DNA of 64,000 nucleotides from Tubiluchus corallicola (lineage: Eukaryota; Animalia; Priapulida). Shown piece after piece: positions 34,801 through 63,400 of the stretch (within the stretch, counting starts at the first letter, position 1; each line of letters begins with the position of its first letter). Both the position numbers and the translations under genes were made by a program. Location: positions 248,001-312,000 of the forward strand of contig JAQGDQ010000203.1 of the NCBI GenBank assembly GCA_030141605.1. Direction: 5' to 3'. The notes under the pieces are model-generated. The model saw nothing but the letters and a program-made list of their open reading frames with translations, was not told the origin of the DNA and made no database searches.

Positions 34801-37800
34801 TACATCGATGTTATGAATTGTTTTATACGTAATTCTTATGAAATGAATTTTGCATAGAAAAGCTTAATTATGCAAATTTTCACATTAGTGATAAGCAAAA
34901 ATTCCTTATGGCAAATGAAATTAATGGCCAAAGGCTCAAAACGGCTTGCAAAGCTCCACTAGAGACCTTGATAACATAGTTGCCCAATTCTGGCAGGTGG
35001 AAGTGTGTGAAGATGAAACCACTATTCTGAAGAAGATATCAAGATGATTATATATATATACTAATACTAATCTGTAATAAAACATACAGAGAATGTACAG
35101 TAATAAAATGTTGTAGGAGGATTCAGTAATTCTACCTAAGGATAATCACTACCAATTGCCAACACTATTGACAATTGATAGTGATTATGCTTAGATAAAC
35201 CCAATACCATTCTGAAGCAAGTATCCTGAGCTCCCAAAAACTTACCTGTGCTCCCTGTGGCACAGTCTAGATTGCAGGGTCGTAAAAACAAGCTACAAAA
35301 TGACTGTGGAAATCTTAAATTTGCTAAATATGGCATATGCCGAGGAAATAAATGCCAAAAGTATTAATGGCAGCCCTAGAAAGATTTGGTATTAGCCTCA
35401 CTTTGCAGTTAGTAAAACAAACAAGCCAGATAAAAACAAGAATTGTGTTTAATTGTGCTGTTCAATTTGAAGGTACTACTCTCAACAGGAATGTTACGCA
35501 GGGCCCTGCTTCAGGAGTTGTGCTTAAATTTAGAAAAAACCAAATAGATTTCATGGCTGATCATGAATGCATGTTTCACCAAGCAAAGGTACTGCAGAGG
35601 ATAGTGATATACAAAGATTTTTATGATGGGAAAATGGTTGTTTAAACGCATAACCAAAAGTCTACAGAATGGCCGTACACACATTCTGTGGAATGTGGTG
35701 ACCAAGTGCAGCAGCTTTTGCACTCCAGAGTACTGCAAGGGATAACAGGCATTTGTATGATGAAAATGTATTGGAAGGCCATTAACTCCGATTTCCGATG
35801 ATCCCGAGGATGCAGAACCATTGAGGCCAAATCGTCTGCTTTTGGCTCACAATCACGCTTTGCTGCCACAAGGTATTTTTTGAGACTGATCGATACAAAC
35901 ACAAGTGACAACGCATTCAGCTCTTAGCGACAACAACAACAACAACAAAAAATAGACTATGCCAAAGAGAAATCTCAAAGTTAATGATGTGGTGCTTGTG
36001 AAGGAGATCAGATATCTGTAGCCACTGTGAAATATGTAACAAGCTCATGATGGCCTGAAGGAGTGAAGGATAGATTTTTGGAGCAACCCATACAGAAGCT
36101 TTGTCTTCTGAAGGGTGCTGACAAATTGCTTGTTGAACATGTTTGTCAAAATGCTCTGGTCAAGTTTGCATTAGAGAGGGGGAGTGTTGCTGCCATATGT
36201 AGAATAGGAAGTTGGAAAGTGCTGGCCTAGTTATGAATGGACTTTGTATTTGAAAGAGACCTTTACAATGGGTAGAATAATCTTCTTACACACTGCATAC
36301 CTTTCAATGTAACCATTTTGGGCTGTACTCTTGCCACTAGCATCTCTTCCTCTCACATTTCTATCTTCATCATCCTGCCTTCCCTTGCACATTTTTACTC
36401 AGCTTCACTGACAGACATTGCATCTCTTGCTCTGATGGCACATATAGCTGTTACAGCTGGGCTTTAAGCATTTGAAGCAAAGTCTTTTCTTTCTGGACAG
36501 CTCCAATCTGTCTTCTGGCTTCATGGCAGCCAAGTTTGCACATTCAGTTACGAAGTGTTCACCTATGCAGATGCTGCATGTACTAGGTCTCTTTGACTCA
36601 CCTGATATTTTGAATAAAAAATTTGTTAGGCAACTTGCTTTAGCATCTTTTCTCGCCGTGAGTTTCTGGCATCTGTTCTTTTTCGGTCTGTATATTCTAA
36701 ACTGATTTAGTAATCATTAAATTTCAGTGATCACATGGAAACCCGAGCCAAGATATCAGATCTTACCACCATAAGGCATCATGTGATTAAGTAAAAACAT
36801 AGAAGGTATCAATAGTGACTTGTATAATTCTGAGAAAAGCACACTCAACAGTTTCAGCTGAAGAAGCCCACTGGTCAGACTGAGACTCAATACTGTCGAG
36901 ATCTATTGTGGTCGTAAACATGTCAGAATCAAATTGTGATTTGATTTTAGCATATAATTTTAACAAAGCAGGGCTCCAATAGAAAGATGCATCCTTTATC
37001 TACACACTAATATAAAGAAAAGTTGAAACATACCTCCTATTCATAAAAAAATTACTGTTAGCGTCACGAGAACAGACTAAGACCGAGCGATTTCCTGAAA
37101 TGTTTTCATTTGGGAGTTAGCAGATAGCAATATTTTTATCTACTGCTGTGTGCCACAGCCTAGGTGTTTTGGATATAAGCACGTGGTGCCTCCTGGTGTT
37201 TGTTTTTCCTAGTTTAGACAGGTGAGCTAGGTCAGGAAATAGGCCATTGGCCTCATTTCACAGTTAGCATATGAAAGAAGTGAGTCACCGGTATGCGGCA
37301 AAGATGTAAGTTTCATTTCTTCACATTTCGTCATGTCATATTATTATTAATTATCATTATACCAGTTACTTAATGTTTTGACGTTGGTTTAGCAGAAAGA
37401 ATTTTTAATTTTTCTTCAGCTAAAACGAAGTCGAACGCATGTCGCGTACAGTTTTATATCTCAGTCTGTGTACCTAGAAGAGACGGCCATATTGCTTTCG
37501 AGAACAGAACACCTGGACAAGGGTAGTACAGCATGGCTTCCGGGCAAGGACGAGATTTGTTGAGACTAAATGAAGAACAGCTTCAGCAAAAAACCGTACA
37601 AGAGTTAAGAAAGTTGCTACGGGATAAGGGATTACAAGTCGCTGGAAGCAAAGCAGAATTAGTCCAACGAGTACTGGACAGCGAGATTACTGCAGAGGTA
37701 ACCACGCCTACTTCAAAGAGTGAGAGTGTTAAAACGGCTCGTGACCAATCAGGCGAGGTGGGAGTGATGCAAACGGACAACACCACGTCCAGCAGTGTGA

Positions 37801-40800
37801 AAACTTCTGCAACAAACTTAAGCAGGTTTGATTTGCATGCCTTGAAAATTAAAGAACAGAAACTAAAATTACAAGCCATGGAAATCAAACATTTGAGCCT
37901 GCAAAAGGCTAGTCAGGGTTCTGCTAGTTCAGATGTGGCTTCGCCTGTAGCCAAAGAAATATCAAGTGCAGAAAAGGTCAATGAGTGGATTGAAAAGTCA
38001 CACAAAGATGTCACAGAAGTCTCGTCACCTGAAGGGCTCATCAAACCCGAAGCTTACGTTACTATGGCTACCAATGATAAATACGCCATAGGTGCTCTAG
38101 TACTGGCTTCTTCGCTATGTAATGTTGGTATTACACTTAGTTTAGCGATATTAATTACAACTGGAATTTCTAAACCCATAATGACGCAGATAAGCGCCAC
38201 CTTTGATCACGTGGAGCTTGTGGAAGCTATTGACAGTTCACATGTAAAAAGTCTACAATTACTAGGACGGCCCGAATTAAAGGTGACTTTTACAAAACTG
38301 CATTGTTGGAGGCTAACTCAGTTCTCAAAATTTGATTTTTGGATTCTGATGTAATTGTCCTGCAAAACATAGATGATTTATTTAGCTGGAACGAACTGTC
38401 AGCAGTTGCAGATATTGGCTGGCCTGATTGTTTTAATAGCGGACTTTTCGTTTTTGAACCTAATCTTAGCACGTACAGTGAATTGAGGTCATTCGCTCAG
38501 TCAGATTCAAGCACATTCGACGGTGGAGAGCAAGGTCTACTAAACCAGTATTTTAAAGCCTGGAATACAGCTTTTGATAAACGATTGCCATACAGGTATA
38601 ATGTAGCAGTAAAGCAGTTTCGAGAAAGTGTCAAGGTTGCTCATTTCATGGGTCCTAGTAAGCCCTGGGACAGTATACGCAGCATTTATCACAAGCAAGT
38701 GGCGCCAGCTACAGGTAAAACAGACTTTGAATCTGAAATGTTAAATATTTGGTGGTCACTTTACATTCATGAGGTCGAACCAAACTGGCCTCATGAATTA
38801 GAACTAATAAATAAAGCTAATGTTCAGCAGCACATTCCTACCCGAACAAAACTCAGTCCTGATGCACCTGAATTTGCCACTCGCTTACATGACAGGAGCA
38901 GTGTTCATAGAAAATTATACACATGATGACGGGGCGAGATATACCAGGCTTTTACAATTTTGCACGGGCGAAGCAAAACGGGTTGTCGAAAGTTGCAGTT
39001 ATATGGACCCGCAGATCGCATACAGTCATGCTAAGCAAATGCTTATTGAACGTTTCGGGTCACCCTTTATTGTAACACAAGCGTGGTTGGCTAAAATAAA
39101 TGAGTTTGCAGTCATAAAAATAATGAAAAGGAAAAACTCAGGGAATTTTCTGACTTGATGATTGGTTGTGTAGAGACATTAAAGGCCATGGACAATTTAG
39201 CCGAAATAAATACACAAACAAGTTTGCTTCAAGTCATTAAGAAACTCCCATTCCGTTTGCAAGACAAATGGAGAGACGTTGTTACCAAGTTAAATAAACA
39301 TGATGGCAGAAATCCTACAATTTACGACGTGGTGGGATTTGTCAAAGAGGCGACTGAAAAAATAAACCATCCCGTGTTTGGTGACCTTGCAACCGGTGGT
39401 CAAATGAACATTACAAAACGCAAGAATAAATTAGCAACTAGGAATTTCGCATGCACTACCTTTCGAACAAGAAGTTCATCCAGAGAAGAAAAATCGAGTC
39501 AAACAGGCGGAACGCCAAAGGATAGAAAATTAAGCAGTAGAGATGTCAGAAAATGTGTTCTGCAACTCAGCCGAGCATGTTTCTCTAAAAAACTGTGAAC
39601 AGTTTAAAGACAAGTCGGAAGAAGAGAGACTACAGTTTGCTCGGAAAAGTCGCTTATGTTTTAACTGCTTACAGAAAGGGAACCAAAGAGCTGGAAGCTG
39701 TTACAAACCAGGCTGTACAAGACAGGGATGCAGAAGAAAACATTCTGCTCTGCTTCATGACGCTCTGGAGAAGTGGGCTCCTTCCAATGGCGAGAGGTCA
39801 ACAAATGTTGAAGCAACAAGTTGCGCTGTCACTACAACCAAACTGTCAACAAGGGCTGTGCTCCCCATCACTCCTGTAAAGGTACAGGTGCAAGGCGGAC
39901 GTCCAATTCAGACAATGGCTTTGTTGGACCCAGGATCAACTAATACGTTCTGTTCCAAGGCCATATATGATGAGCTGGGAGCTGTTGGCAAGAAACAAGT
40001 CGTGTCACTGACTACAATTGAAAAGAAGCATTCAAAAATACATACTTCTGTGACCAAGATGTACGTCAGTAAGTTGGATGGATCAAACAAAATGAAACTT
40101 CCCTTTGTCTTTGTCAGGCCATCTTTGATGTTGGATGTGACTGACTATTTGGTAGACGAACAAGACATTAGTAACTGGCCTCATCTCAAAGATGTTCCTT
40201 TGACGCTAGCTGATTCACGTGAACTGCAGCTCGGGTTAATTATAGGACAAGACGTCTCTGATGCATTAATGCCTTTAGAAACACGCTGTGGGCCAAGAGG
40301 AGTTCCGTATGCAACAAGGACTAGACTTGGATGGACATTAAATGGCCTGATAGGAGGCGGCAATGAGGACACTAAAAAGCTGTCAAACAACCTTCTTCAG
40401 GCAGAACAGGTTACCAGCCAGCGACAAGTCGAAAAATTTTGGAAAATGGACGCTGTTGACGATAGCATACAGTACTCCCATGACGATAAGTTGGCGCTGA
40501 GCATTTGGGAGAAGTCCATCACCAAAAGAAATGGTCACTACGAATTGGAGATACCTTTTAAGTCTAATGATGACAACATTCCTGACAGTTTTCAAATGGC
40601 TTCAAAGAGGTTGGCAAGCCTTCGCTGTAGACTCAGCAAGAATAAGTTGTTGCATGAAAAATACTCCCAAGCCATGGCTGATCTGCTCCAAAAGGGATAC
40701 GCAGAAGAAGTTGTTGAACATGATACGAATGTTGCAACATGGTACTTGTCACATTTTCCAGTTTTTAATGAGAACAAACCCGAAAAAACTAGGATCGTAT

Positions 40801-43800
40801 TTGATTGTTCGGCAACAGAAGACGCAGTCTCTCTCAACATGTTGGCACTACAAGGTCCAGATCTGACTAATAAATTGCTTGGTGTCCTGCTATGCTTTAG
40901 AAAGTATCCAGTAGTAATCATGGCTGATGTTCGTGAGATGTTTCACCAGGTGTACGTAGCACCGAAGAATAGGGACATGTTGAGATTTCTCTGGTGGAAT
41001 GATGGAAACCTAGATGCGCCACCCTCCATATTTCGAATGACAGTCCACCTTTTTGGCGGTGTGTGGTCGCCCAGCGTAGCTTCATTTGCTCTCCAACAGA
41101 CAGCTAGAGATAACGTCAACTGTTTTGATGAGCATGCATTAAATACGGTGGTACATAGCTTCTATGTCGACGACCCCTTTAAATCTGTGGAAACTGCAAA
41201 AGAACCAATCGATTTGATGTCAAAATTAATACAGATTCTAGACACTGGAGGTTTCCACTTGACCAAATGGATGAGTAACGACAGAGACGTATTAGCATGT
41301 GTGCCAATTGAAGAACGAGGAAAGAACATTAAGAATCTTGATCTAACCCAGGACGATCTACCAAATGAACGAGCCTTAGGGGTTAAATGGGATGTCAAAA
41401 GCGATATACTTGGCATTCAGGTTAAGCTGCGAGAAAAGCCAAGCACCAAGCGGGGACTACTTAGGTCATTAGCAAGCACCTATGATCCCCTAGGCATGGT
41501 CTCGCCTTTCATTTTACAAGCGAAAAGACTGTTTCAGAACGAATGCCGGATCCAGGAAAAATCATGGGATGATAGACTGGAAGAAGAGACTGAGAAAAGT
41601 TGGGATAAATGGAAATCTGATTGTCCTGCACTAGAATACTTTACGCTAGACAGATGCCTGAAGCCAAGAGATTTTGGAAGAATTGCTGACTTGCAGCTGC
41701 ATCACTTCAGCGATGCATCCCAGTATGCTTACGGCACTGTAACTTATGCACGGATGGAAAATGCTGATGGAGTTGTACACACAGCATTTGTAATGGCAAA
41801 GTCTAGGCTAGCACCTATGAAAAGCCTAACCATACCACGCCTTGAGTTGTGCACAGCAGTATTAGCCTCAACTGTCGACAAACAACTGAGAAGAGAATTG
41901 TCCATACCCATCAGCGAGTTCGTGTTTTGGTGTGACAGCACTATAGTGCTTCAATACATACGCAACACCACAAGACGTTTCCATACTTTCGTGCAAAATA
42001 GAGTGACTACCATACTAGAAACTTCGTCGCCAGTTCAGTGGCATTATATCAGTACCGCAGATAATCCAGCTGATGACGTATCCCGAGGAATGGACGCCAA
42101 TGCCTTAGTAAAATCTCAGCGTTGGAAATATGGTCCTAGTTTTCTGCGAAAAGCCCAACATGAATGGCCGCAGCATGATCCGAGCAAAGAAAATGATGAA
42201 CTTAACGACGATAAAGAAGTCAAGCAGACGACATGTTCCACTACTGTAAAACACATACAGGATAGAAACGACACAATTAGCAAGCACATTGAACATTTTT
42301 CGTCATTTTACAACCTCAAGAAAGCAGCAGCTTGGATTCTTCGTCTGAAGGACATTTTGCAAAAGAAGATCAGAGGAGAAAAACCTGAAGTACCTCCAAA
42401 GTTAACAGTGCAAGAGCTGACAAGAGCTCAAGATGCATTAGTAAAATTCGTTCGGACTCAGAACTTTGGCATGGAATATAAGGCGCTTACACAAAAATCT
42501 GCTAAATTGATGCGCATCCCTAAATCAAGCAGGCTACGAAAACTTGATCCGTTCATTTGCGAGAAGGGTTTGCTACGTGTTGGTGGACGACTGAAGGCGC
42601 CAGGCACCCTATGATATTACCGAGAAAGCATAAGCTGTCAGAGCTAATCATTCGTCATTACCACGAAACGAACGGCCACATTGGCAGGGAACATGTCATA
42701 GCTTTAGTAAGAAATGAATTTCGGATAATTCATGCAAGAGCCTTGGCACGCAAAGTCCTGTACGAATGCCGACATTGCAGGCTTCGCAAGCCATCTTTCC
42801 TTGATCAAAAGATGGCAGATTTGCCTATTGACAGACTACAGCCATCAGACGCTTTTACCACTATTGGCATTGATTGTTTTGGCCCGATACAGACCAAGAG
42901 AGGTCGCTCACACATTAAACGCTATGGAGTCATCTTTACATGCCTAGCTACACGCAGTATTCACTTGGAAGTCCTATTTGACATGTCCACTGATTCGGTT
43001 ATAAAGGCGATTAACAGATTTTGCTGCCGCCGAAGGAAGCCAGACAAAATCAGGTCAGATTGTGGGACTAATTTTGTAGGAGCAAGCAGAGAGCTGAGAA
43101 AGTCTATAGCCGAGTGGAACAATGACGTCATACATTCAGAGCTTCTTCAGCGGCAAATAGAATGGCAATTCAACCCACCAAGAGCCCCACACATGGAAGG
43201 TGTTTGGGAGTCTCTCATTAAGAGTGTGAAGAAGATTCTCTTTCCAACGAACAAACCTTGGATGATGAAGGCTTGGCAACCCTGTTTTGTATAGTTGAAA
43301 ATATAGTTAATAGCAGACCGCTAACTACAGTTTCTGACGATGTTGACGACTTCAATCCGTTGACTCCGAATCACTTTCTTCAGATCAGCGCAGTTCCAAA
43401 CCTGCCTTTGGGAAAGTTTTGTCAGGCAGATCTCTTTCGACGAAAGTGGAGACAAATACAGTATCTCTCGGATATCTTTTGGCGCAGATGGTTGACTGAA
43501 TATTTGCCCACTCTACAGACTCGAAGCAAATGGAACAAGGAGCAGAAGAATGTTGAAATAGGAGACATCGTATTAGTTCTGGATGAGACACCAAGGAATC
43601 ACTGGATGCTAGGACGGATCATTGAAGCACGGAAAAGCAGTGATGGACTAGTGAGAAGTGTGATGTTGAAGACTAGAGATGGGACTCTAAAACGACCAAT
43701 TCATAAAATAAGTTTAATCGAATGTAACAATTAGTTGATTTTGTTAAGCATTCATAAACTGTATGTTTAAGTTAAACTTTGAAGTAGATGTATGTCAATT

Positions 43801-46800
43801 TAGTCAGTCATGATATGTTATTACACTGTTGGTTTCCTTTAATTTTGTAAATGCTGCAGGAGAGCATTTAAGGAGGCAGTGTTTTGGATATAAGCACGTG
43901 GTGCCTCCTGGTGTTTGTTTTTCCTAGTTTAGACAGGTGAGCTAGGTCAGGAAATAGGCCATTGGCCTCATTTCACAGTTAGCATATGAAATAAGTGAGT
44001 CACCGGTATGCGGCAAAGATGTAAGTTTCATTTCTTCACATTTCGTCATGTCATATTATTATTAATTATCATTATACCAGTTACTTAATGTTTTGACGTT
44101 GGTTTAGCAGAAAGAATTTTTAATTTTTCTTCAGATAAAACGAAGTCGAACGCATGTCGTGTACACTAGGTAATAGGAATGCTTCAGAAAAAAGAACCAA
44201 ACTGTAAACACTGAAAAGTTAAAAAGAGCTTCAGATGAATTTTTTCAATGTGCGCCATTTTACAGTGTCTGTGTGGGCCAGTAAGTGGCGTACTCTACCG
44301 GCGTTGTTTTGTAACTTTTGATTTTCTTTCGAAACGCGGCACAAATAGCAAAGAAGGGTTGCAGTTTATACAATGAAAATTGGAACATACGATACTTTGA
44401 GGCTTCATACTGTACAAAAAATATGACTGTATGAAGAAGAAAGCCAATGTTCTAGCACATTAAGTGCTTGTTAAGAACAATAATTTTCTTGCTTGTAGTC
44501 CTTCGTTGTTTTGAATACATGACTTTTTGTATCATGCAACTTTGAAGGTTTTTGACTTTCCAGCAGATTTCACTTTAAAGATGTTTTCACGTGTCAGCTC
44601 CAAGATGCGTAAAGATTAGGAAACTTGAAACTTTGAAGCCCTGTACATTTCCTTGAGTACTGTTTCTTTCAGTTGCTCAGCACATATATACACTCACATA
44701 CTGACTGACCTTACTGACTAACCAGCTAACTAGCTATGATTTACTTAGTGTCGGTTAGTTATTTAATTAGTTAGTGTTGGTCTAGCTAAGCTAATCAGAG
44801 AGTCAATCAATTAGTTTTGGCAATTTTGTGGTATGGCAGGTTTGGTGGTATGGCAGGTTTGGCGATATGGCACATTTAGCACTATGGCGGTATAGCAGGT
44901 TTGGCAATGTGGCATTTGGCGGGTGGTGTTGGTATGGGAAGGAGGTAGAGTGTCGACAATGGGACTGATATAGGAAGGTAGAAGGGTGTTAGGGTGTGAG
45001 GAAAACCACCTAAACTGCAAGTGCGCCACAATGGCCCGAAATAAAGACCACCGAGCATTCCCTTTGGAATGCCGCTATGAACATTAATCCACTCATAGAT
45101 AATACATTTAAAACTCCTGACAAAGACAATTTGTTACCTAGAGTCTTAATTGATACAAAGGATCACATTTCAGCCCCTTTAGCACATGTTATAAACTTAT
45201 CCCTCGAAAATGGATGTATTCCTAATAAGCTAAAGGAGTCGGTAATTGTTCCTTTGTTTAAAGCTAAGAACCCTATGGACTTGAGGAATTATAGACCCAT
45301 CTCCCTCCTACCATTTTTTCTAAAATTTTTGAAAACTTTTTGAGTTCAGTTGTCAGATTACCTAAACAAAAAAAAATATTATTAATACAGAACAGTTTGG
45401 GTTCAGGAAAGGTTGTTCAACTGAAATAGCTTTAGTTAAAATTGTAGAAAACAAAATAATTAAATACAGAAGGTAAAAAAGGTCACTTGGTATTTTTTGC
45501 TACCTGTCAAAAGCTTTTGACTCGGTCGATCATGATATACTACTATCAAAACTATTTTACTATGGAATCAGGGACAAGGCTCATCAGCGGTTAGAAAATT
45601 ACCTTAAAGAGCATACACAAGTAGTTAAATATAATGGTTGTTTCTCTTCAGAAAAAATATAACTCATGGTGTGCCGCAAGGGTCAATTTTGAGACCACTT
45701 TTGTTCTAAATATATATAAATGATTTATTACATTTCCTAATTAGTTCTGTGGAAGTTGTAACTGTATATTTTTAGGTGCTGCCATCTATTAACTAATCAC
45801 TTTACATTTTACCAGCTAAACTCACCCATAATATAATTGTTCGGTCCAGTGAATATGCATACTCACTGGATCTCTCCCTATTTTACTGTAATGGTATTTG
45901 TGAAGCCAAGTTTGCATAATTACCTATACCTATATATACTGACTGGATTCTACTTCTAGTCACTCTCTGTCTCACTCTCAATGCAGTGCAGAAGTCATGC
46001 TAGTCGTGCTACACAACTGTCTAACTCACACTCTGTGCAGTGCAGCAGTCGTGATCCTCATTTTACTTACTGTCTAACTCTCAGTGATCAGTGCAGGACA
46101 TTCTTGTCCTCAGTGTGCAGTGTAGCAGTCATTCTACATATGTGTATGTAGTCTAATAAATGTTTCAGTTTTGTGCAGATATGTGGTATAGTGTTTTATT
46201 CTTTTTCTACAAAGTGTTCAACTACAACTTCATACAAGACTTTCACAAGTTCCAAAATGATTCAATATGCTGACGACACTAGCCTCCTTTTTAATATTAA
46301 TCAGTTCAATGCGCAAAACACAGACAAGATAAATGATGAACTCGAACAAATTCCTATGTGATTCAAAATTAATAAGCTTTCCCCAAATCCGTCAAAAACT
46401 AAATACATTGTTTTTAGGTCGCGTTATAAAAATATTCTAAGTAATATTGACATCAACATAGCTCAGGTGCCCATAACATGAGTAAATGAAATGAAATTTT
46501 TAGGTGTAATCATTAATGAATTTTTAGATTGGCAAGCACACATTAATAAGCTATGAGTTAAAATGTCTAAAAACATAGGAATTATTTAACATATAAAACA
46601 ATATACTTCCAAAAAAACATATGATTTCACTATACAGTAGTCTTGTTTTGCCATATCTGACCTACTGTGCAATCCTGTGGGGTACAACGTATGCCAGTGT
46701 GTTAAACAGTATGACAACGCAAATGCAACCGTCAGATGTATAACTTACGGAAAAGATTCCAGATAGGCAACAATTATTTCAATGAAAACAGAATTTTATT

Positions 46801-47611
46801 ATTTGATAATTTAGACAAATGATTAAAAATAGCCCTTCCGTTAAAAAATTTGAAGAAACATTTAAACTACAAAACTTCAACTTGTATAGTACTTCATAGT
46901 TTTTTCCCTTCCTCTTAACCCAGTAAAGTTCATCCTCTGCAATATAATCATTATTTGTTATTTCAGTTCTAGGTTAATATACCATTGGCAGTCACAGCAT
47001 GATGCTAGCCATGGCGTATTCGTATAACGTACGCAATTATTATTAATTATCATTTACTGAATTCATTATTACATATGATTGCACGTCGGCACTATCATAA
47101 TAACTATAATTCTCACATCTTTTTCTGTTCTTTTCTCGTTTTAACCATAACATTTTTTACTTATTCCTGTTCTACATGCTTTTGTATATAAATTCTCCTC
47201 CTTATTTCTATTTCACATTCAGCCATTCTTACATTTACAAGCTATTAGTATTAATAAGCTTCTTGCTGCAGTGGTGTTATCATGAATTGATACTAATATT
47301 TATAACTATATCCGTTAATTTCAACTAAATCACACAATGATGTACATTATATGTACGTAAAATGTATGTTACTAGTATGGTAATTACTATTTATGTGAAA
47401 TAAATAAGTAAAATTGAAAAAATAAATAAAATTGAAACTCTACGTTACCTCCTGCAAGAAAAGAACTAAACCAAGAAGATTAAATCTCAAAAAGCTAAAT
47501 AAATAACAGTAAACATCAAGCAAAAAAATAAACTCAATAGAAAGACGCGAGTTCATTAAAAAATGTATTAAAGAAATGTATCTATTGTTCACTGACCTGC
47601 ATTGACGCCAT
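28857..47611 (-). CDS. UBE2W: Ubiquitin-conjugating enzyme E2 W (6 coding exons, 148 aa)
   Basis: Minus-strand exons: 47611-47597 (MASMQ), 31718-31636 ([17 protein letters not shown]...), 31257-31155 ([34 protein letters not shown]), 29898-29743 ([37 protein letters not shown]...CKEK), 29262-29187 ([25 protein letters not shown]), 28870-28857 (DDKV*). All GT-AG with compatible phases, 447 nt. The HPHV motif (HPN in most E2s) and the C-terminus are diagnostic of UBE2W. Confidence 0.95.
33290..33795 (-). mobile_element. Degenerate LINE (CR1/L2-like) ORF2 3' fragment
   Basis: Minus-strand remnants [11 protein letters not shown] and [20 protein letters not shown], typical of the LINE ORF2 C-terminus; truncated at the old BEL LTR. 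Confidence 0.6.
33796..36230 (+). mobile_element. Old, heavily deleted BEL/Pao element related to the young copy
   Basis: Similar LTR starts TGTTGCT(A/G)CCATATG(C/T)AGAATA at 33796 and 36185, the latter preceded by the purine tract AGAGGGGGAG. Remnants translate to Gag ([10 protein letters not shown]), RT ([26 protein letters not shown]; MFHQ; [20 protein letters not shown]) and the C-terminus ([11 protein letters not shown]; QPIQKLCLL). Confidence 0.75.
36400..37150 (-). mobile_element. Probable upstream (endonuclease-side) remnant of the same degenerate LINE
   Basis: Frame-broken minus-strand remnants resembling KAxLLNxFF and the endonuclease (S)DH motif; weak. Confidence 0.35.
37165..37450 (+). 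repeat. 5' LTR of BEL/Pao element (286 bp)
   Basis: Direct repeat of 43880-44165 with 3 substitutions by eye; starts TGTT, ends TACA. Confidence 0.96.
37533..39760 (+). pseudogene. gag: BEL gag (frameshifted): SAP domain - linker - glycogenin GT8 domain - PAM2-like motif - capsid-like region - Cys/His knuckles
   Basis: Spread over ORFs 37533-38354, 38339-38926, 38820-39158, 39155-39598 and the start of 39543. SAP-like [27 protein letters not shown]; BEL Gag core [11 protein letters not shown]...ERFG...KKLP...KW...HPVFG; knuckles C-x2-C...H...C, CFNC...C and C-x4-C-x3-H-x4-H. Frame breaks near 38335, 38890, 39120 and 39558. Confidence 0.88.
38049..38782 (+). pseudogene. Captured glycogenin-like glycosyltransferase family 8 domain inside gag (one frameshift at ~38335)
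   Basis: [23 protein letters not shown]...[21 protein letters not shown] / [15 protein letters not shown]...[23 protein letters not shown]...[13 protein letters not shown]...RLPYRYN...[12 protein letters not shown]...LNIWW is colinear with metazoan glycogenin ([77 protein letters not shown]). No introns. Confidence 0.93.
39800..43734 (+). pseudogene. pol: BEL/Pao pol: aspartic protease, reverse transcriptase, RNase H, integrase, C-terminal domain (frameshifts ~42600, ~43240)
   Basis: LLDPGST (protease); [19 protein letters not shown] and FYVDD (RT); [16 protein letters not shown] and NPADDVSRG (Pao RNase H region); H-x6-H...C-x2-C, IDCFGP, SDCGTNF and GVWE (integrase); [10 protein letters not shown]...RPIHKI (BEL C-terminus). 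Confidence 0.95.
43880..44165 (+). repeat. 3' LTR of BEL/Pao element (286 bp)
   Basis: Direct repeat of 37165-37450; preceded by a polypurine tract and followed by TSD CTAGG. Confidence 0.96.
44815..44940 (+). repeat. Degenerate ~17-bp minisatellite (GGTATGGCAGGTTTGGY)
   Basis: About 6-7 imperfect units, of the kind seen as subterminal repeats of DNA transposons. Confidence 0.7.
45040..47440 (+). mobile_element. 5'-truncated LINE (L2/CR1 group) RT with 3' UTR and repeat tail, interrupted by a solo LTR
   Basis: [14 protein letters not shown]...PLFK...NYRPISLLP; QFGFRKG; [10 protein letters not shown]; GVPQGSIL; YINDL...YADDT; KFLGV. Ends in repeated AATAAATAA.AATTGAAA units (~47399-47438). 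Many stops and frameshifts. Confidence 0.88.
45748..46247 (+). mobile_element. Solo LTR (500 bp)
   Basis: TGTGGAAG...CTTTCACA termini and a 5-bp TSD AGTTC (45743-45747, 46248-46252); internal TATA-like run and AATAAA. Removing it restores the in-frame LINE RT sequence [21 protein letters not shown]. Confidence 0.88.
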
Positions 47612-51176: not shown

Positions 51177-51654
51177 TGTAACAATACCATAGATATGGTT
51201 TGTTTAGATAAAAGATCTTGGTGATTGCTTAGGAGGGTTCTGCATTCGAGACTGTCATGCTGCTCTGATCTTCTTTTTTCACTTCTTCAGTTTTGTCACT
51301 AAGTGCAGGTTGCATATACAAGCTAAATTCTTCACGCCATTTTTTCCATGCTTGTGACAGATTGCGTGATTCGAAGTTTAGTGCGTTAGGTGGTTTTAGC
51401 TGATTCATAGTTCTCTACAAATTTGCCGTCCGAATAAATACTCAAAACAACTAGTTCACTTCTGACACCATGTTACACGCTACAATAATATTAGCAACCA
51501 GACAAATGCGTGCATAATAAAGTAGTATTTATTAAACTAATTAGGAACTTAAACAAAGAAGATCAGAGCAGCATGGCAGTCTCGAATGCAGAACACTCCT
51601 AAGCAATCACCAAGATCTTTTATCTACACAAACCATATCTATGGTATTGTTACA
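51177..51654 (-). mobile_element. Gypsy-derived fold-back element: full LTR + PBS + gag start joined to an inverted 100-bp LTR end
   Basis: On the minus strand: 184-bp LTR (51654-51471, TG..CA), PBS TGGTGTCAGAAGTG (51470-51457), then gag start MNQLKPPNALNFESRNLSQAWKKWREEFSLY (from 51408). 51177-51276 is the reverse complement of 51555-51654 (3 mismatches). TGCAC flanks both ends (51172-51176, 51655-51659). Confidence 0.88.
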
Positions 51655-58100: not shown

Positions 58101-61100
58101 GGTCACATGTGTATGAGTTTAAGCTCTCAATGTACACGTCAATGCGCTGACGATTAAACTCTTCTCGTTGTTGGGATTGTCTTGCATAATTGTTGTTTAT
58201 GAAGTAAAGATCATGACATTTTGGTAAAAATTGTGGTTATTTTCAATTGGGTGTGTTCCGTGTTTCGCAGCGGACTTTAGACTGCACACGTATTCGTGTC
58301 TGCAAGTGAAAACACACACAGTGCTCTGTACTTGAGACCAAGCTGTTTCGTTTACCTGTTCTTATATAGCAAGTCATATTGCCTGAACGCTATTTGATGT
58401 ATTCTTCACTAATCCGCAACATTACCATAAATACGTAACGATCAATAAATCAACTGCTTTATCAGGGTGTAACATAGACCTTGTATGTGTTTGCCTGGCA
58501 TTAAATACCCACATGATTTTAAACAACGCAGTGTGGTTTATTTATTCTTTAATGTAGCTTGATCATTGCCTAGCTAGAACAAAAGAATTCAGTGTGTTGG
58601 TTATCCTCGTACTACAGCAGTGCATTTGGATTGTATAAAGTGTATAAAGGTACATTGTGTAAAGTTGGCTGTAACTTCATAGGAATTTGCAACGAATATG
58701 GAAACTGTGATGGTTTGCCGTTGTTATACGATTTTGACCTAGGGACAACAAAAATGTCTGGATTTTTTTCTAAAATTTTCTCAAAAAGACATTCATCTTC
58801 TGACGTGGACGAAGAGACAACAGAAAAGGTAGAATCACCCAGAAAAGGAGAGAAACCAAAGCGAACTAAATCTGAGAAGAAAAGTAAGAAGAAGGGGGGA
58901 AGCTTCTTGGTTGAAGAAGTGAGTAGTACTAGAGAAGAATTAACAGAAGATGCAAAAGAACATCTGGAGGCAAGTAATGACCCAACAGAAAACTTTGGCA
59001 GTAGACATGCAGGCAAAGATTCTAAGCCAGATGATACAGTATGCATTCAAGACATTGATATAAATATTGTTGAAAACACAGATGATTTGGATGCAAATGA
59101 AAGCAGCATTGGCTTTGAATGGGGTGAAGAAGAGGAAAGTTTACTTGAAGAAGGTGATGATGTAGAAGTAGCTGGGTCTTCCATTTTGTCCAATGAGGAA
59201 TTATTTCTTGAAAAGGAAGGCAAAAAGGAAACTGATTCCGGAAAAACAGATCTACAGAAAGATGATCCGGGTGTTCTTATAAAAGATGAAGTCAAAGGAA
59301 GCAGTTTCTTGGAAGGTGTTTTAATTGCCCTAGAGCAAGATAAGCAAGTGATAAATATTCACGAAGAACAGGAATGTTTGTTAAAGACTGCACAAACAAT
59401 GAGTGTACAGAAAGATCATTTTATGGAAATAAAGCAAAGTGATGAACATGTTTTGAGTGATGACACAGCAATATATTTACTGCAAGATAAGCAGATTTCT
59501 CTTGAATTTCAGCCAGTGAATTCTTTTCCAGAAGTTGTTAAAATGGAAAATCAAAATTCAGTTTCCGAAGTTACTGATAACAGAGAGGACAATGAATCAT
59601 TTGAAGGGGATGCTAGTCATTTGGAAGAAAAAGCTATACAGCACATCAGGGTTAATGACATAACTGATGTAAGAGCCAAAATCCAAGAGGAAGTAAAAAG
59701 TAGTACTATCATTGACTCGAATTTTATTTCGCAATCATTCATCGATCAGAGTGGTGATGACATTAAGAAAGATCTGTTTATTGAAAACAATGTTTATGTT
59801 GAGCCTGTTGGTAGCTGCGATGAGGAAAATGGTAAACTAGAAAATTCACCAGACAGAGCTTTTACTTCAAAAAATACGAGCGAGCATGCAGATACTAAGG
59901 AGGAACTTTGTATAAAAAAAGAAACTGCAGTAGAAAGTGGAATAGTGAATACTGATGATTCTGGAAAAGTTGACCTAAGTCCTGTTGATAGTGATAATAA
60001 AATTGGTGTATTTGGCACTCCCGGCATCCTTCATTCGAGTGGTATTTCTTTTGGTGAAAATGACAGATCAAAACTACCAGCTGAGGTTAACCTTGAAGAC
60101 ATTTCAATCCTAAAAAGTGAAAATCACCTTTCTAATGATGATACTCAACAAGAACATTCCAGTCAAATCTCTGGCTCTAGTTTAGTTCTTGAATGCTCGA
60201 TTCAAGGTGCAAACAAAACAGGAGGCAATTCACAACATTCCAGTCAAGACATAGATGTGAGCTCAAGTCAAGAACACTTCCCTCGGGAAATAGACAGTAC
60301 CTCACGCCAAGAACATTCCTTTCAAAAAAACAATATTAACTCGAATTCAGAATCTTTTACAAAAGAAGTAGTCAGCAGTGAAGACAATTCAGAATGTTTT
60401 ACTAATGAAGCAGACTATAGCTTAAGTTTTGCAAGCAAAGTCAACATAAGTGCTGGGAAAGTAAAAATTGCAATTAACAATGGTAATAATTATCCTCAAG
60501 AAATTCTGCTCGATAATCAAGATGAGAAGAAACACGTTTGTGTAACGTCATTTGTGTCTGATAAACTTCTTTACCCTGATGGTCAACCTTGTGATGACAA
60601 TACTGGTAAAACAATAGAAAAGAATGAGTTACCAGGAGGAAGCAATGAAACTGCAGATATGAAACTAAATATAGTACATGCCAGTCTTGGTACAGGTCCT
60701 TGGGCTGCTGTCATTGAAAGTGATGACAGAAACCTTGTGTGCAGCAACACCATTAAGCAAACAGGAGTAGTGGAAAATTCATCAATAACTATTGTAGAAC
60801 AAGACGTAGGAAAAAGAAATGATGCTGTCTTAAAAGGAAATGAAGAAAAAGGTAGCAGCTTTGGTGATGAAGTGAAGACAGAGGGAAGACAAGCAGCAGT
60901 TAACAACACTGGCTTTTTGGTTGATTCCGAACACCAAGATGAAAAATATGTAGACGATAGCTTAAATGTTACTGCTTCTACAGGTATCAATATAAATGCA
61001 AGTGTTGATGAAGATGTGTTTAATCTTGGTAACTCCATATCTGAGTCTGAGGAGTATACCATTGTACACGATGAAGAGAAAGCATTGAATAACCAACCTA

Positions 61101-63400
61101 TGACAGATGCTACACCAACTTCCAAAGTGTATGACTTAGATACTGTTGGAGTGGAAACTGCATCTGTAGACGATTTTGTTGAAGAAGCTGCTGATAAAGA
61201 AAAAATAAAAAATGAAACAAATGCTAATGTCAGAGAAGAGCAGGCAGATAGCTCTTTAACTGATAAAGAGAAGATCAAAAAAGAAGTTGACAATAGACAT
61301 GAACATCAAGGTCGGAGACGGCTAAAATCGGCTGAAGCAGAAAAGGCTTCTGACTCCACATTTTCTGTTGCCCTTGGTAACACTGATGAGGTGCTTCTTA
61401 TTCTTTTTTTTTAAATTTGTTATTTCGTTTATGCCATATCTGATTTGTGACTGAACTAGAATAAAAATTTGTAATGATATTAGTCTTTCATTGCATAATA
61501 ATTGATAATATTAATGCTTATTTAACAACAAGTCTTTAACATGAAACAGATTTAGATCTTGATCAGGTATGGGACCATAACTCTTATTACAGGGCCAAGC
61601 TTTTTGGGTAGGAAGTTAATTGCTTAACAGGACTAACAGTTGAGTATTTAAACTGTGTTCATTCTTATATTGTGCATTTTGCAGTGTACTTTTTATGGCC
61701 AGAAGAGAAAATGCAAACCTTGTGTTAAGGTGGATGAGAACAATCAGATTACAAAAACGCCTAAGTGCATTAATTATTAGCAATGATTATGTTTTTACCA
61801 TACCTTGCCATAATAATTGTAAGAAACTCTGATTATGTGTAGAACCTTTACTGTTTATTCTAGTTTCCTATCATTTTTCTTTTCTGTAATATTAATTCAC
61901 ATAAATTGATTATTAGAATTTTGAATTTGTCTGGCTCATTTTTTTGGAGAGCAGAAAATTCTTGTTTTCTCCTTTTCTGATTATCAATTTCTTTATCTGT
62001 AATATTTCCTCATTGATGTTCCAACTCCACCTTTACAGCTAAATCAAAGTCAGACTAATTGAATAACTTTTGCTTTTGTAGGCAGAGCAACGGCTGGCAG
62101 CAAAGAGAGCAGCAAGGGCAGAAGCAAGGAAGATTCGAATGCGGGAGGTAGAACGGCAGCAAGCAGAGGTATAATATATTATGTGCTTTGTCTTTTTAAA
62201 GTAGGTGTAGCTTTAAGTGCAGTATTCTTCAAATGTTTTTACTGTTGAGCTGTATTCTACCTGCTGTATTTCCTGTGCGAGTGACAATTTTAATGCCTTT
62301 ATTGGGCATTAATTTATACTGAAAAGAGATTCTATATGCATTTCTACAGCTTTTAGCCAGTTTTGGGACAGTCATAATTGGGGAGTGGACATAAAAGATC
62401 AAGTTGAAACGTTCAAATTCGATTGAAACAAGTTTTTTAGTTCAAATTCAACTTGAAATTTTAATAATTGAATCTAGTGATTTAACACTTCAATTACAAA
62501 ACTTTAAACAGAGATAAAATTTTGTCTGCAGTTACAAAATTATTAACTTGGATTAGCCTTTTGTACAATTTCCATTTATTAATTTACTTTTTTAGTAACT
62601 TGTAGCTAAATTAATGTTTTTACATGCAGCATTATTTTTTTTATTATTGAATTTGATTCAAATTTGAGTAAAATCAACTTTCAAGATTCAATTTCAAACC
62701 TTAAAAATAGATTTGGTGCATGTTCGCCCCATTCATATTTTCTTGTTTGCTATACTAGACTTCATAGATAACTGATACCCCAGTAAATCAGCAATGATGC
62801 AAAGTACTGGTGTTACTGATACATTTGTTATTCTATTCAGGCTGAATCAAATGAAGTTCGATATCGTGATGCTGCAGATGGAACTCCCAGGGTATGTTAG
62901 TGATGTCATTCCAAACACACACGCATTCCATTCTTAACTGACACCTTTTTAATTCTTACACAGTTACATAATGTCGTTCTTAAGACACGCACAATAAATG
63001 ATGGTATTTATTTCACACTGAGTGAAGGATGTCACTCTTATTCTTAACTCCCTGTCGTAAATAATATCATTCTTTAATTGCTTGAGGAAATGATGATATT
63101 TTTAACTTACATACAGGAAATTATGTCAGTTTTACTTCACACTGAGTAATGATGCACTCTTTACTCAGATACAGTTAGTTTTGGTCACTATGCCAGAAAG
63201 CATTATATGGACTCACATTTTCTTGAACTTATTGCACAGAAATCTTTATAAATAGGTTTAATCTTACACCATTTTGCACTTCTTTAACTGAATGATTTTT
63301 TTTGTTCTAGACGTACACATCACGGGCTGGATCCGATTCATCTGTACGTTCCGGAAGGCGTGGTAGTGATGGTAGCGAATCAGAGGTTAAAGAACTTAAG
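55170..63400 (+). CDS. LRRFIP2: Leucine-rich repeat flightless-interacting protein (LRRFIP1/2 family), 5' exons; gene continues beyond window
   Basis: Phase-0 exons 55170-55274 (MSNSSPSSSTPGSGRRRGDRQYAAEDDALSKITKE), 62082-62168 (AEQRLAAKRAARAEARKIRMREVERQQAE), 62841-62891 and 63311-63400 (…SGRRGSDGSESEVKELK). They match the LRRFIP N-terminal helix AEDxALxxIxxEAExRLAAKRAARAEARxIRMRExERQQ and the RRGS motif. Probably the single invertebrate LRRFIP1/2 co-orthologue. Confidence 0.9.
58754..61390 (+). CDS. Large acidic low-complexity coding exon (~879 aa), probable alternative first exon of LRRFIP
   Basis: Uninterrupted 2.8-kb ORF (58592-61414) in LRRFIP intron 1. ATG in good context (aaaATGt) at 58754. 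It ends at GAG|gtgctt (61390/61391) in phase 0, matching the 62082 exon. Rich in E/D/S/N/K, with no transposon motifs. Confidence 0.7.
62377..62735. mobile_element. Possible MITE with TTCAA/TTGAA-rich internal repeats
   Basis: Imperfect terminal inverted repeats TGGGGAGTGGACAT / ATGTTCGCCCCA; TTCAAATTCAAC-type repeats also occur at ~52700-52765. Confidence 0.4.

Follow-up and report, generated by a model that had tools for sequence, protein, structure and literature searches.

A glycogenin-derived domain within the Gag of a BEL/Pao retrotransposon from Tubiluchus corallicola

The locus

In the window analysed here, a 64,000-nt stretch of DNA from the priapulid Tubiluchus corallicola (GenBank assembly GCA_030141605.1, contig JAQGDQ010000203.1, positions 248,001 to 312,000 of the forward strand), a BEL/Pao long terminal repeat (LTR) retrotransposon spans positions 37165-44165 (7001 nt). 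Its Gag contains, after the SAP domain and before the capsid region, a segment (38049-38785) of the glycosyltransferase family GT8, which by its sequence is glycogenin-derived without being a glycogenin itself. A model's sequence-only reading of the stretch had proposed a glycogenin-type GT8 domain at this place in a BEL/Pao element, and Pfam (GT8, E 2e-10; SAP, E 8e-9), structure matches, the LTRs and a target-site duplication confirm it. The parts of the element are as follows.

37160..37164, no strand: left copy of the 5-bp target-site duplication (same letters as 44166-44170)
37165..37450, forward: 5' LTR, TG...CA, 286 nt, differing from the 3' LTR at 3 places
37533..38048, forward: Gag N-terminus with start codon, SAP domain (37581-37679; PF02037, E 7.9e-9) and low-complexity linker
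38049..38333, forward: GT8/glycogenin domain, first 95 codons, in frame with the Gag N-terminus (phmmer against glycogenin-1 residues 4-100, E 1e-20)
38334..38335, forward: frameshift just before the DxD motif (three-frame translation)
38336..38785, forward: GT8/glycogenin domain, second part (PF01501, E 1.9e-10; PDB alignments; 210-sequence alignment)
38786..38905, forward: Gag linker, continuing the GT8 frame and containing a PAM2-like motif at 38846-38875 (PF07145, E 0.033, below cut-off)
38907..39760, forward: capsid-like and zinc-knuckle region of Gag (blastx to Pao polyproteins, 61/120 matching)
39900..43734, forward: pol, with protease motif at 39918, reverse transcriptase (RT) YVDD at 41163, RNase H/Peptidase_A17 at 41445-41939, integrase at 42629-43111 and DUF5641 at 43444-43716 (Pfam, motifs)
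43870..43879, forward: polypurine tract (sequence)
43880..44165, forward: 3' LTR, 286 nt (comparison with the 5' LTR)
44166..44170, no strand: right copy of the 5-bp target-site duplication (same letters as 37160-37164)

With its LTRs, polypurine tract, single gag-pol, 7-kb size and the order capsid, nucleocapsid, protease, RT, RNase H, integrase, the element is a BEL/Pao member. The LTR length, overall size and 5-bp duplication agree with this group (0.2-1.2 kb LTRs, 4-10 kb genome), and the Pfam matches follow its order, namely PF05380 (Peptidase_A17, E 1e-47), PF00078, PF17921, PF00665 and PF18701 (DUF5641, E 3e-30). The capsid and nucleocapsid of Gag were recognized by the blastx matches to 61 of the 120 Pao polyproteins; the DUF1759 profile has no match in this copy because the capsid region is broken. 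In the RT-RNase H region, identity to Pao elements from echinoderms, molluscs, hemichordates and cnidarians is about 45-50%, and the best pol matches all carry PF05380. No TGG-type primer-binding site was seen by eye 3' of 37450.

The LTR pair is 99% alike (3 differences over 286 nt), loose ends of contigs from public sequencing runs fall at 37165 and 43880, the two LTR starts, and the element is young. Its gag-pol coding region is spread over seven frames by six breaks, so this copy is dead. Frame changes lie near 38335, 38905, 39117 and 39590 in gag and near 42600 and 43250 in pol, and at the one near 38905 this copy also lacks the capsid start with its LP..FDG motif, a region of very roughly 40 codons. 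This load of breaks would be roughly what 1% LTR divergence allows.

Likeness to glycogenin

The two halves of the segment together follow the catalytic domain of glycogenin, the first matching residues 4-100 of glycogenin-1 as given above and the second (38336-38785) residues 100-260 (E 1e-36), and they share the fold, the DxD motif, the donor and metal residues and the domain boundaries of animal glycogenin-1 (PDB 1ll2, 3t7m). A structure model of the second half-domain (predicted local distance difference test score, pLDDT, 81) adds little. The intronless run from EAYVT to just after WW, the lack of the C-terminal glycogen-synthase-binding tail and the motifs DSD, TKL, FNSG, HF and KPW, all reported from the sequence alone, are upheld by the colinear structure alignments to glycogenin-1 and by three-frame translation. 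The claim that the segment is in frame with upstream Gag holds for the first 95 codons; it fails beyond the frameshift at ~38335, which parts the two halves and leaves the DxD motif and all that follows in another frame.

For alignment to 210 full-domain glycogenins, out of 282 that were fetched, the break was filled with an X; the segment has a mean identity of 48% and a maximum of 56% to them. The glycogenins are 59% alike among themselves (median of 210), and only one of the 210 is more divergent than the element segment. Among 79 columns that are at least 95% conserved, 68 are kept, 7 changed, 3 lie inside a deletion and 1 falls at the break, which gives 68/75 once the deleted and break columns are set aside.

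We further compared positions that we take to form the glycogenin active site. Four of these, Asp102, Asp160, Tyr195 and Tyr197, are named as site residues in passages of PMC7046021 and PMC12267440. Outside one loop, 15 of the 16 positions on this presumed list are kept (human numbering: Thr11, Asn12, Tyr15, Arg77, Lys86, Trp90, Asp102, Asp104, Asp125, Asn133, Asp160, Gln164, His212, Gly215 and Lys218), and Asp163 is the exception; Leu9 and Ala103 are conservatively changed. The GT8 fold, the DxD motif and the residues for uridine diphosphate (UDP)-glucose and Mn2+ that mark glycogenin are thus present, with the residue list partly assumed and these parts out of frame in this copy.

That the segment is colinear with the whole catalytic domain, as had been claimed, is contradicted at two places. 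Residues 190-199 of glycogenin are deleted in frame at ~38605, which removes Tyr195 and Tyr197, and Asp163 is replaced by Glu. Tyr195 is the acceptor site of glycogenin self-glucosylation and is Tyr in 208/210 glycogenins; the Y-x-Y pattern is missing in 6 of 257 other GT8 rows, two or three of which are merely incomplete. With the self-acceptor loop lost and another residue in place of Asp163, glycogenin-style self-glucosylation is excluded for this sequence. The element domain, without the Tyr195/Tyr197 loop, with Glu at Asp163, lacking the synthase-binding tail and fused to Gag, differs in this from animal glycogenin-1 and could not prime glycogen likewise.

Junctions with Gag

Upstream, the frame of the SAP linker continues straight into the first GT8 strand. 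Downstream, the GT8 frame reads on to the PAM2-like motif. Of the 24 Pao relatives (among 120) that could be scored, 11 have such a motif upstream of their capsid, so the downstream junction is in frame with Gag, as the sequence-only reading had stated. In those 11 Pao Gags, among them P0018, P0035, P0040, P0081 and P0130, the PAM2-like (poly-A-binding-protein-interacting) motif is found 30-95 residues before the capsid start. SAP stands at the Gag start in one of the 120 relatives (P0130), and their pre-capsid region ranges from fewer than 100 to more than 400 residues and therefore tolerates additions. The ends of the segment coincide with domain ends and carry neither poly-A nor a duplication. 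On these grounds the domain was joined to Gag in frame at either end and cut back to its own boundaries, and the proposal of an mRNA-derived capture, cut to the domain and joined in frame, agrees with the lack of introns, the glycogenin matches and the junction frames.

Versions in public sequencing runs

Four public sequencing runs (X1-X4) from two samples and two studies hold the stretch, X1 and X3 representing one sample, and all of the material consists of contigs. None of the four is on record as RNA, and one may be the source of the window DNA. An X2 contig is identical to 38046-38404, DxD frameshift included, so the frameshift is in the DNA of that sample; X2 also holds differing versions beside the identical one. 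Both X1/X3 contigs over the DxD break, which make up all X1 and X3 depth there, are without it, though pol pieces from the same sample differ at 0-1 places across 238-872 nt, so the break looks recent and private. An X4 contig covers 38612-38847 with 3 differences and no gap, and a differing version therefore runs from GT8 into Gag.

The depth of GT8 is comparable to that of pol in all four runs (summed X1 depth: GT8 362-579, pol 227-624, flank contig 199), and joints that skip GT8 number 0 among the 15 joints listed (of 24). As depth is no copy number, it is to be taken only as a sign of a small number of copies, GT8 being roughly as frequent as pol. In X1, X3 and X4, the summed depth of the LTRs (37165-37450, 43880-44165) exceeds that of the interior by factors in the tens, which suggests many solo or related LTRs; within the 64-kb window there is no other element copy or solo LTR. 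The flanks (36965-37159 and 44171-44440) consist of repeat sequence at high depth, with contigs that connect the left flank to the right one; the element has therefore likely inserted into another repeat.

These contigs also bear on two ways in which the fusion could be spurious or confined to this copy, a chimeric assembly and a processed pseudogene that entered it after integration. Among the contigs listed, none reaches across the upstream junction or covers the element from end to end, as such an artefact would have it, but the segment ends show no poly-A or duplication, both are in frame, several versions exist and in another sample a contig continues from GT8 to the Gag linker; we regard either event as very improbable.

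Relatives, trees and literature

In a careful tree of 48 rows, from which 10 wanted rows were left out as partial sequences, the element GT8 joins P0001 with support 97/87, on a branch of 1.53 as against 0.16 for P0001, while a FastTree of 258 rows yields no supported group for it. The comparison with glycogenins that the sequence-only reading had called for thus places the segment among animal-type glycogenins, but its position is unstable across the two trees. A source in a DNA virus or a microbe instead of the host is barely credible. Giant viruses do encode glycogenin homologues, for example Mimivirus R707 (PMC9614988, in part), but R707 is 26% identical to glycogenin according to the same passages, whereas the segment reaches up to 56% to the animal-type glycogenins among which it falls, and none of 6 pattern matches in viral contigs was confirmed as a relative.

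A GT8 inside Gag distinguishes the window element from other BEL/Pao elements: it occurs in 0 of the 120 Pao relatives listed, out of 1488 pol relatives (564-1796 aa). For the Belpaoviridae, the ICTV profile names only an optional env-like gene as an extra (PMC8742986). The 15 longer GT8 matches (470-2000 aa) are all host-type GT8 without a Pao fusion, near-length GT8 matches reach at best 51% among 120 listed of 576, and the best 150 of 886 representatives contain no SAP plus GT8, with 22 odd ones showing only GT8-type Pfam matches. An intact polyprotein of ~2070 aa lies outside the length limits of three of these protein searches (longer, pol-relative and near-length), and their blanks are weak. 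In metagenome contigs searched by tblastn, Gag or Pol stands next to GT8 in 0 of 80 loci kept (118 found), and the ESM Atlas gave no usable match. In two proteins, P0168 (3062 aa) and P0271 (1588 aa), a glycogenin domain lies far from the N-terminus with no other Pfam match; they are possibly fused gene models.

The assertion that no BEL family with a glycogenin is known was likewise supported by the literature search, which covered mostly open-access papers, with Repbase outside it, and found no description of a retroelement with a glycogenin or other glycosyltransferase domain. PHD and host genes go unmentioned in passages of PMC3118150, whose supplementary element sequences could contain a fusion of this kind. 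What seems new here is a glycosyltransferase as an in-frame Gag domain in an LTR element, which these searches did not find described.

Variation and selection

Differences between versions were drawn from the best-supported 40 of 400 substitution rows, 33 of them in coding sequence. Among these rows, the silent share is 5/7 in GT8, 1/11 in the Gag N-terminal part, 3/3 in the capsid and 3/12 in pol. For GT8, this exceeds the neutral expectation of 0.22-0.28 (binomial p 0.007-0.02) and the share in the Gag N-terminal part (Fisher p 0.013). Both non-silent GT8 differences, checked by hand, fall at positions where the other copies agree with glycogenin and the window does not. Given the differing versions, the X4 contig into Gag and the silent excess, GT8 is likely a family trait under purifying selection.

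We also simulated neutral decay by stop-free mutation of 7 host coding sequences, with 294 runs per identity level. No more than 7 losses at the 75 columns occurred in 0/294 runs at 63% identity to the start, 0/294 at 70% and 1/294 at 80%. In a cruder simulation with uniform amino-acid decay, which is weaker than the codon simulation, 19/998 runs did as well as the element. Most of the divergence arose under selection, and whether that selection had its seat in the element or in the host hinges on the host glycogenin gene.

Origin and possible function

With somewhat less than even confidence, we read the segment as a Gag-borne glycogenin domain that would be selected as a family trait and would act as a UDP-sugar/Mn2+ transferase on a non-self acceptor. 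Most likely, a spliced host glycogenin mRNA was packaged in a particle and copied into gag by two template switches, after which the element would have kept its pol and spread, and selection would have kept the domain inside it. With donor and metal sites intact and both the acceptor arm and the synthase tail gone, the domain could not prime glycogen on itself and would transfer sugar in trans; because this copy has lost the self-acceptor tyrosine loop, it would act on an acceptor other than itself, presumably a glucan, or a sugar carried by a protein close to Gag or the particle. Retroviral Gag order suggests by analogy that it would face the cytoplasm or be freed by the element protease. A more elaborate version, which we put forward only tentatively, holds that a BEL/Pao lineage domesticated glycogenin and removed its self-acceptor arm, turning it into a trans-acting glycosyltransferase of the virus-like particle that modifies the capsid, a cytoplasmic glucan or a host defence protein. 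Capsid shielding, germline targeting and restriction-factor modification, suggested earlier as roles, are guesses.

Several known systems offer partial parallels. Passages of PMC9614988 describe Mimivirus R707 as a virus-encoded glycogenin homologue that transfers sugar in trans without self-glucosylation, and passages of a preprint (bioRxiv 10.1101/764241; PDB 6mw5) describe Gat1 of Toxoplasma and Pythium in the same terms. As far as these passages go, both are precedents for the trans action proposed for the element domain; both differ in being stand-alone, distant (R707 26%; Gat1 E 1e-15), not borne by a retroelement and not derived from animal mRNA. Glycosyltransferases of their own are known from large DNA viruses (PMC9614988, in part). 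In the LTR-mediated retrocopies treated by Tan et al. 2016 (PMC5131818, in part), template switching likewise places an intronless piece of host-type mRNA inside an LTR element; there, the cargo replaces part of the internal open reading frames (ORFs), whereas the element here keeps its full pol and carries the cargo as an in-frame Gag domain. Bdelloid LTR elements also carry enzymes, such as a GDSL esterase and a DEDDy exonuclease, but according to passages of PMC5408684 and PMC6431247 these are separate ORF3s after pol, unlike the Gag-borne domain in position and, not being glycosyltransferases, in kind.

Various observations weigh against a selected and active transferase. On the side of the enzyme, Asp163, which is needed for glycogenin activity and present in 209/210 glycogenins, is lost in the element, with Glu at that position in 0/210. 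The 10-residue deletion may harm the enzyme as well, because Tyr197 makes glycogenin dimer contacts (PMC12267440, in part), and the loop deletion and Glu163 could be either family-wide or private decay. The same changes would suit a selected but non-catalytic module, whose fold would bind UDP-glucose, a glucan or a host partner (with Gag parked on glycogen granules, or the domain serving as a spacer) after its transfer activity was lost. The absence of the loop deletion and of Glu163 from the 40 best-supported differing places (of 400) is a weak hint that both are shared. We consider such a module quite unlikely, for the donor and metal residues are all kept, beyond the needs of a spacer, the loss of Tyr197 would weaken pairing with host glycogenin, and the synthase-binding tail is absent.

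On the side of selection, the variant rows give a partial view, and the silent share of GT8 does not differ significantly from that of pol (p 0.074); the idea of selection on GT8 among copies is supported by the silent excess but not by this comparison. The expectation that other copies share the fusion stands in the same way: differing GT8 versions and the X4 contig support it, whereas the upstream junction is bridged by none of the contigs listed. Some variant rows could stem from a close host gene; the contig that runs into Gag and a depth exceeding that of the flank speak against this, not decisively. Moreover, 7 or fewer losses were seen in 63/294 neutral runs at 90% identity to the start, and a recent capture from a fast-evolving host gene would therefore fit. 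The GC content of fourfold sites in GT8 is 27/101 (0.27), lower than in any 101-site pol window; the remainder of the element has 272/729 (0.37; p 0.046), and a host-type ORF of the window, to which GT8 is similar, has 78/338 (0.23; p 0.51). Such host-like silent sites are contrary to what a long stay in the element predicts. Finally, searches of proteins, metagenomes and viral contigs found no fusion relative in any other species.

These points lend themselves to a recent passenger, that is, a piece of divergent host glycogenin mRNA copied into Gag, in frame by chance and only tolerated there; its conservation would date from its time in the host, and the loop deletion and Glu163 would be decay. 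The host-like GC, the low copy number, the want of a relative elsewhere among the searches and the unstable tree placement would all follow, the long branch may belong to the host lineage, and passages of PMC5131818 describe mRNA capture by LTR elements as common in animals and, in young cases, often in frame. Even so, we judge a passenger to be rather unlikely: silent differences are in excess among versions, the segment ends match domain ends, pol is retained here although the captures in those passages replaced part of the internal ORFs, and the sister P0001 has a short branch in the careful tree.

If the domain is selected and active as a transferase, it would link the replication of retroelements to glycogen or to the sugar chemistry of the cytoplasm and provide a natural test of how a self-priming enzyme becomes trans-acting by the loss of one loop. 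If it is a passenger, it would be a tidy but ordinary mRNA capture.

Elsewhere in the window

No Rfam match was found around the element (35000-47000). No tRNA was found either. A 946-codon stop-free frame at 58574-61414 (forward), acidic, of low complexity and without a Pfam or PDB match, is likely one large host exon. Decayed RT fragments of the non-LTR type lie at 45014-46361 (forward; RVT_1, E 0.003), and an inverted repeat at 51177-51654, with 103-nt arms that are 96% complementary, is likely a miniature inverted-repeat transposable element (MITE).

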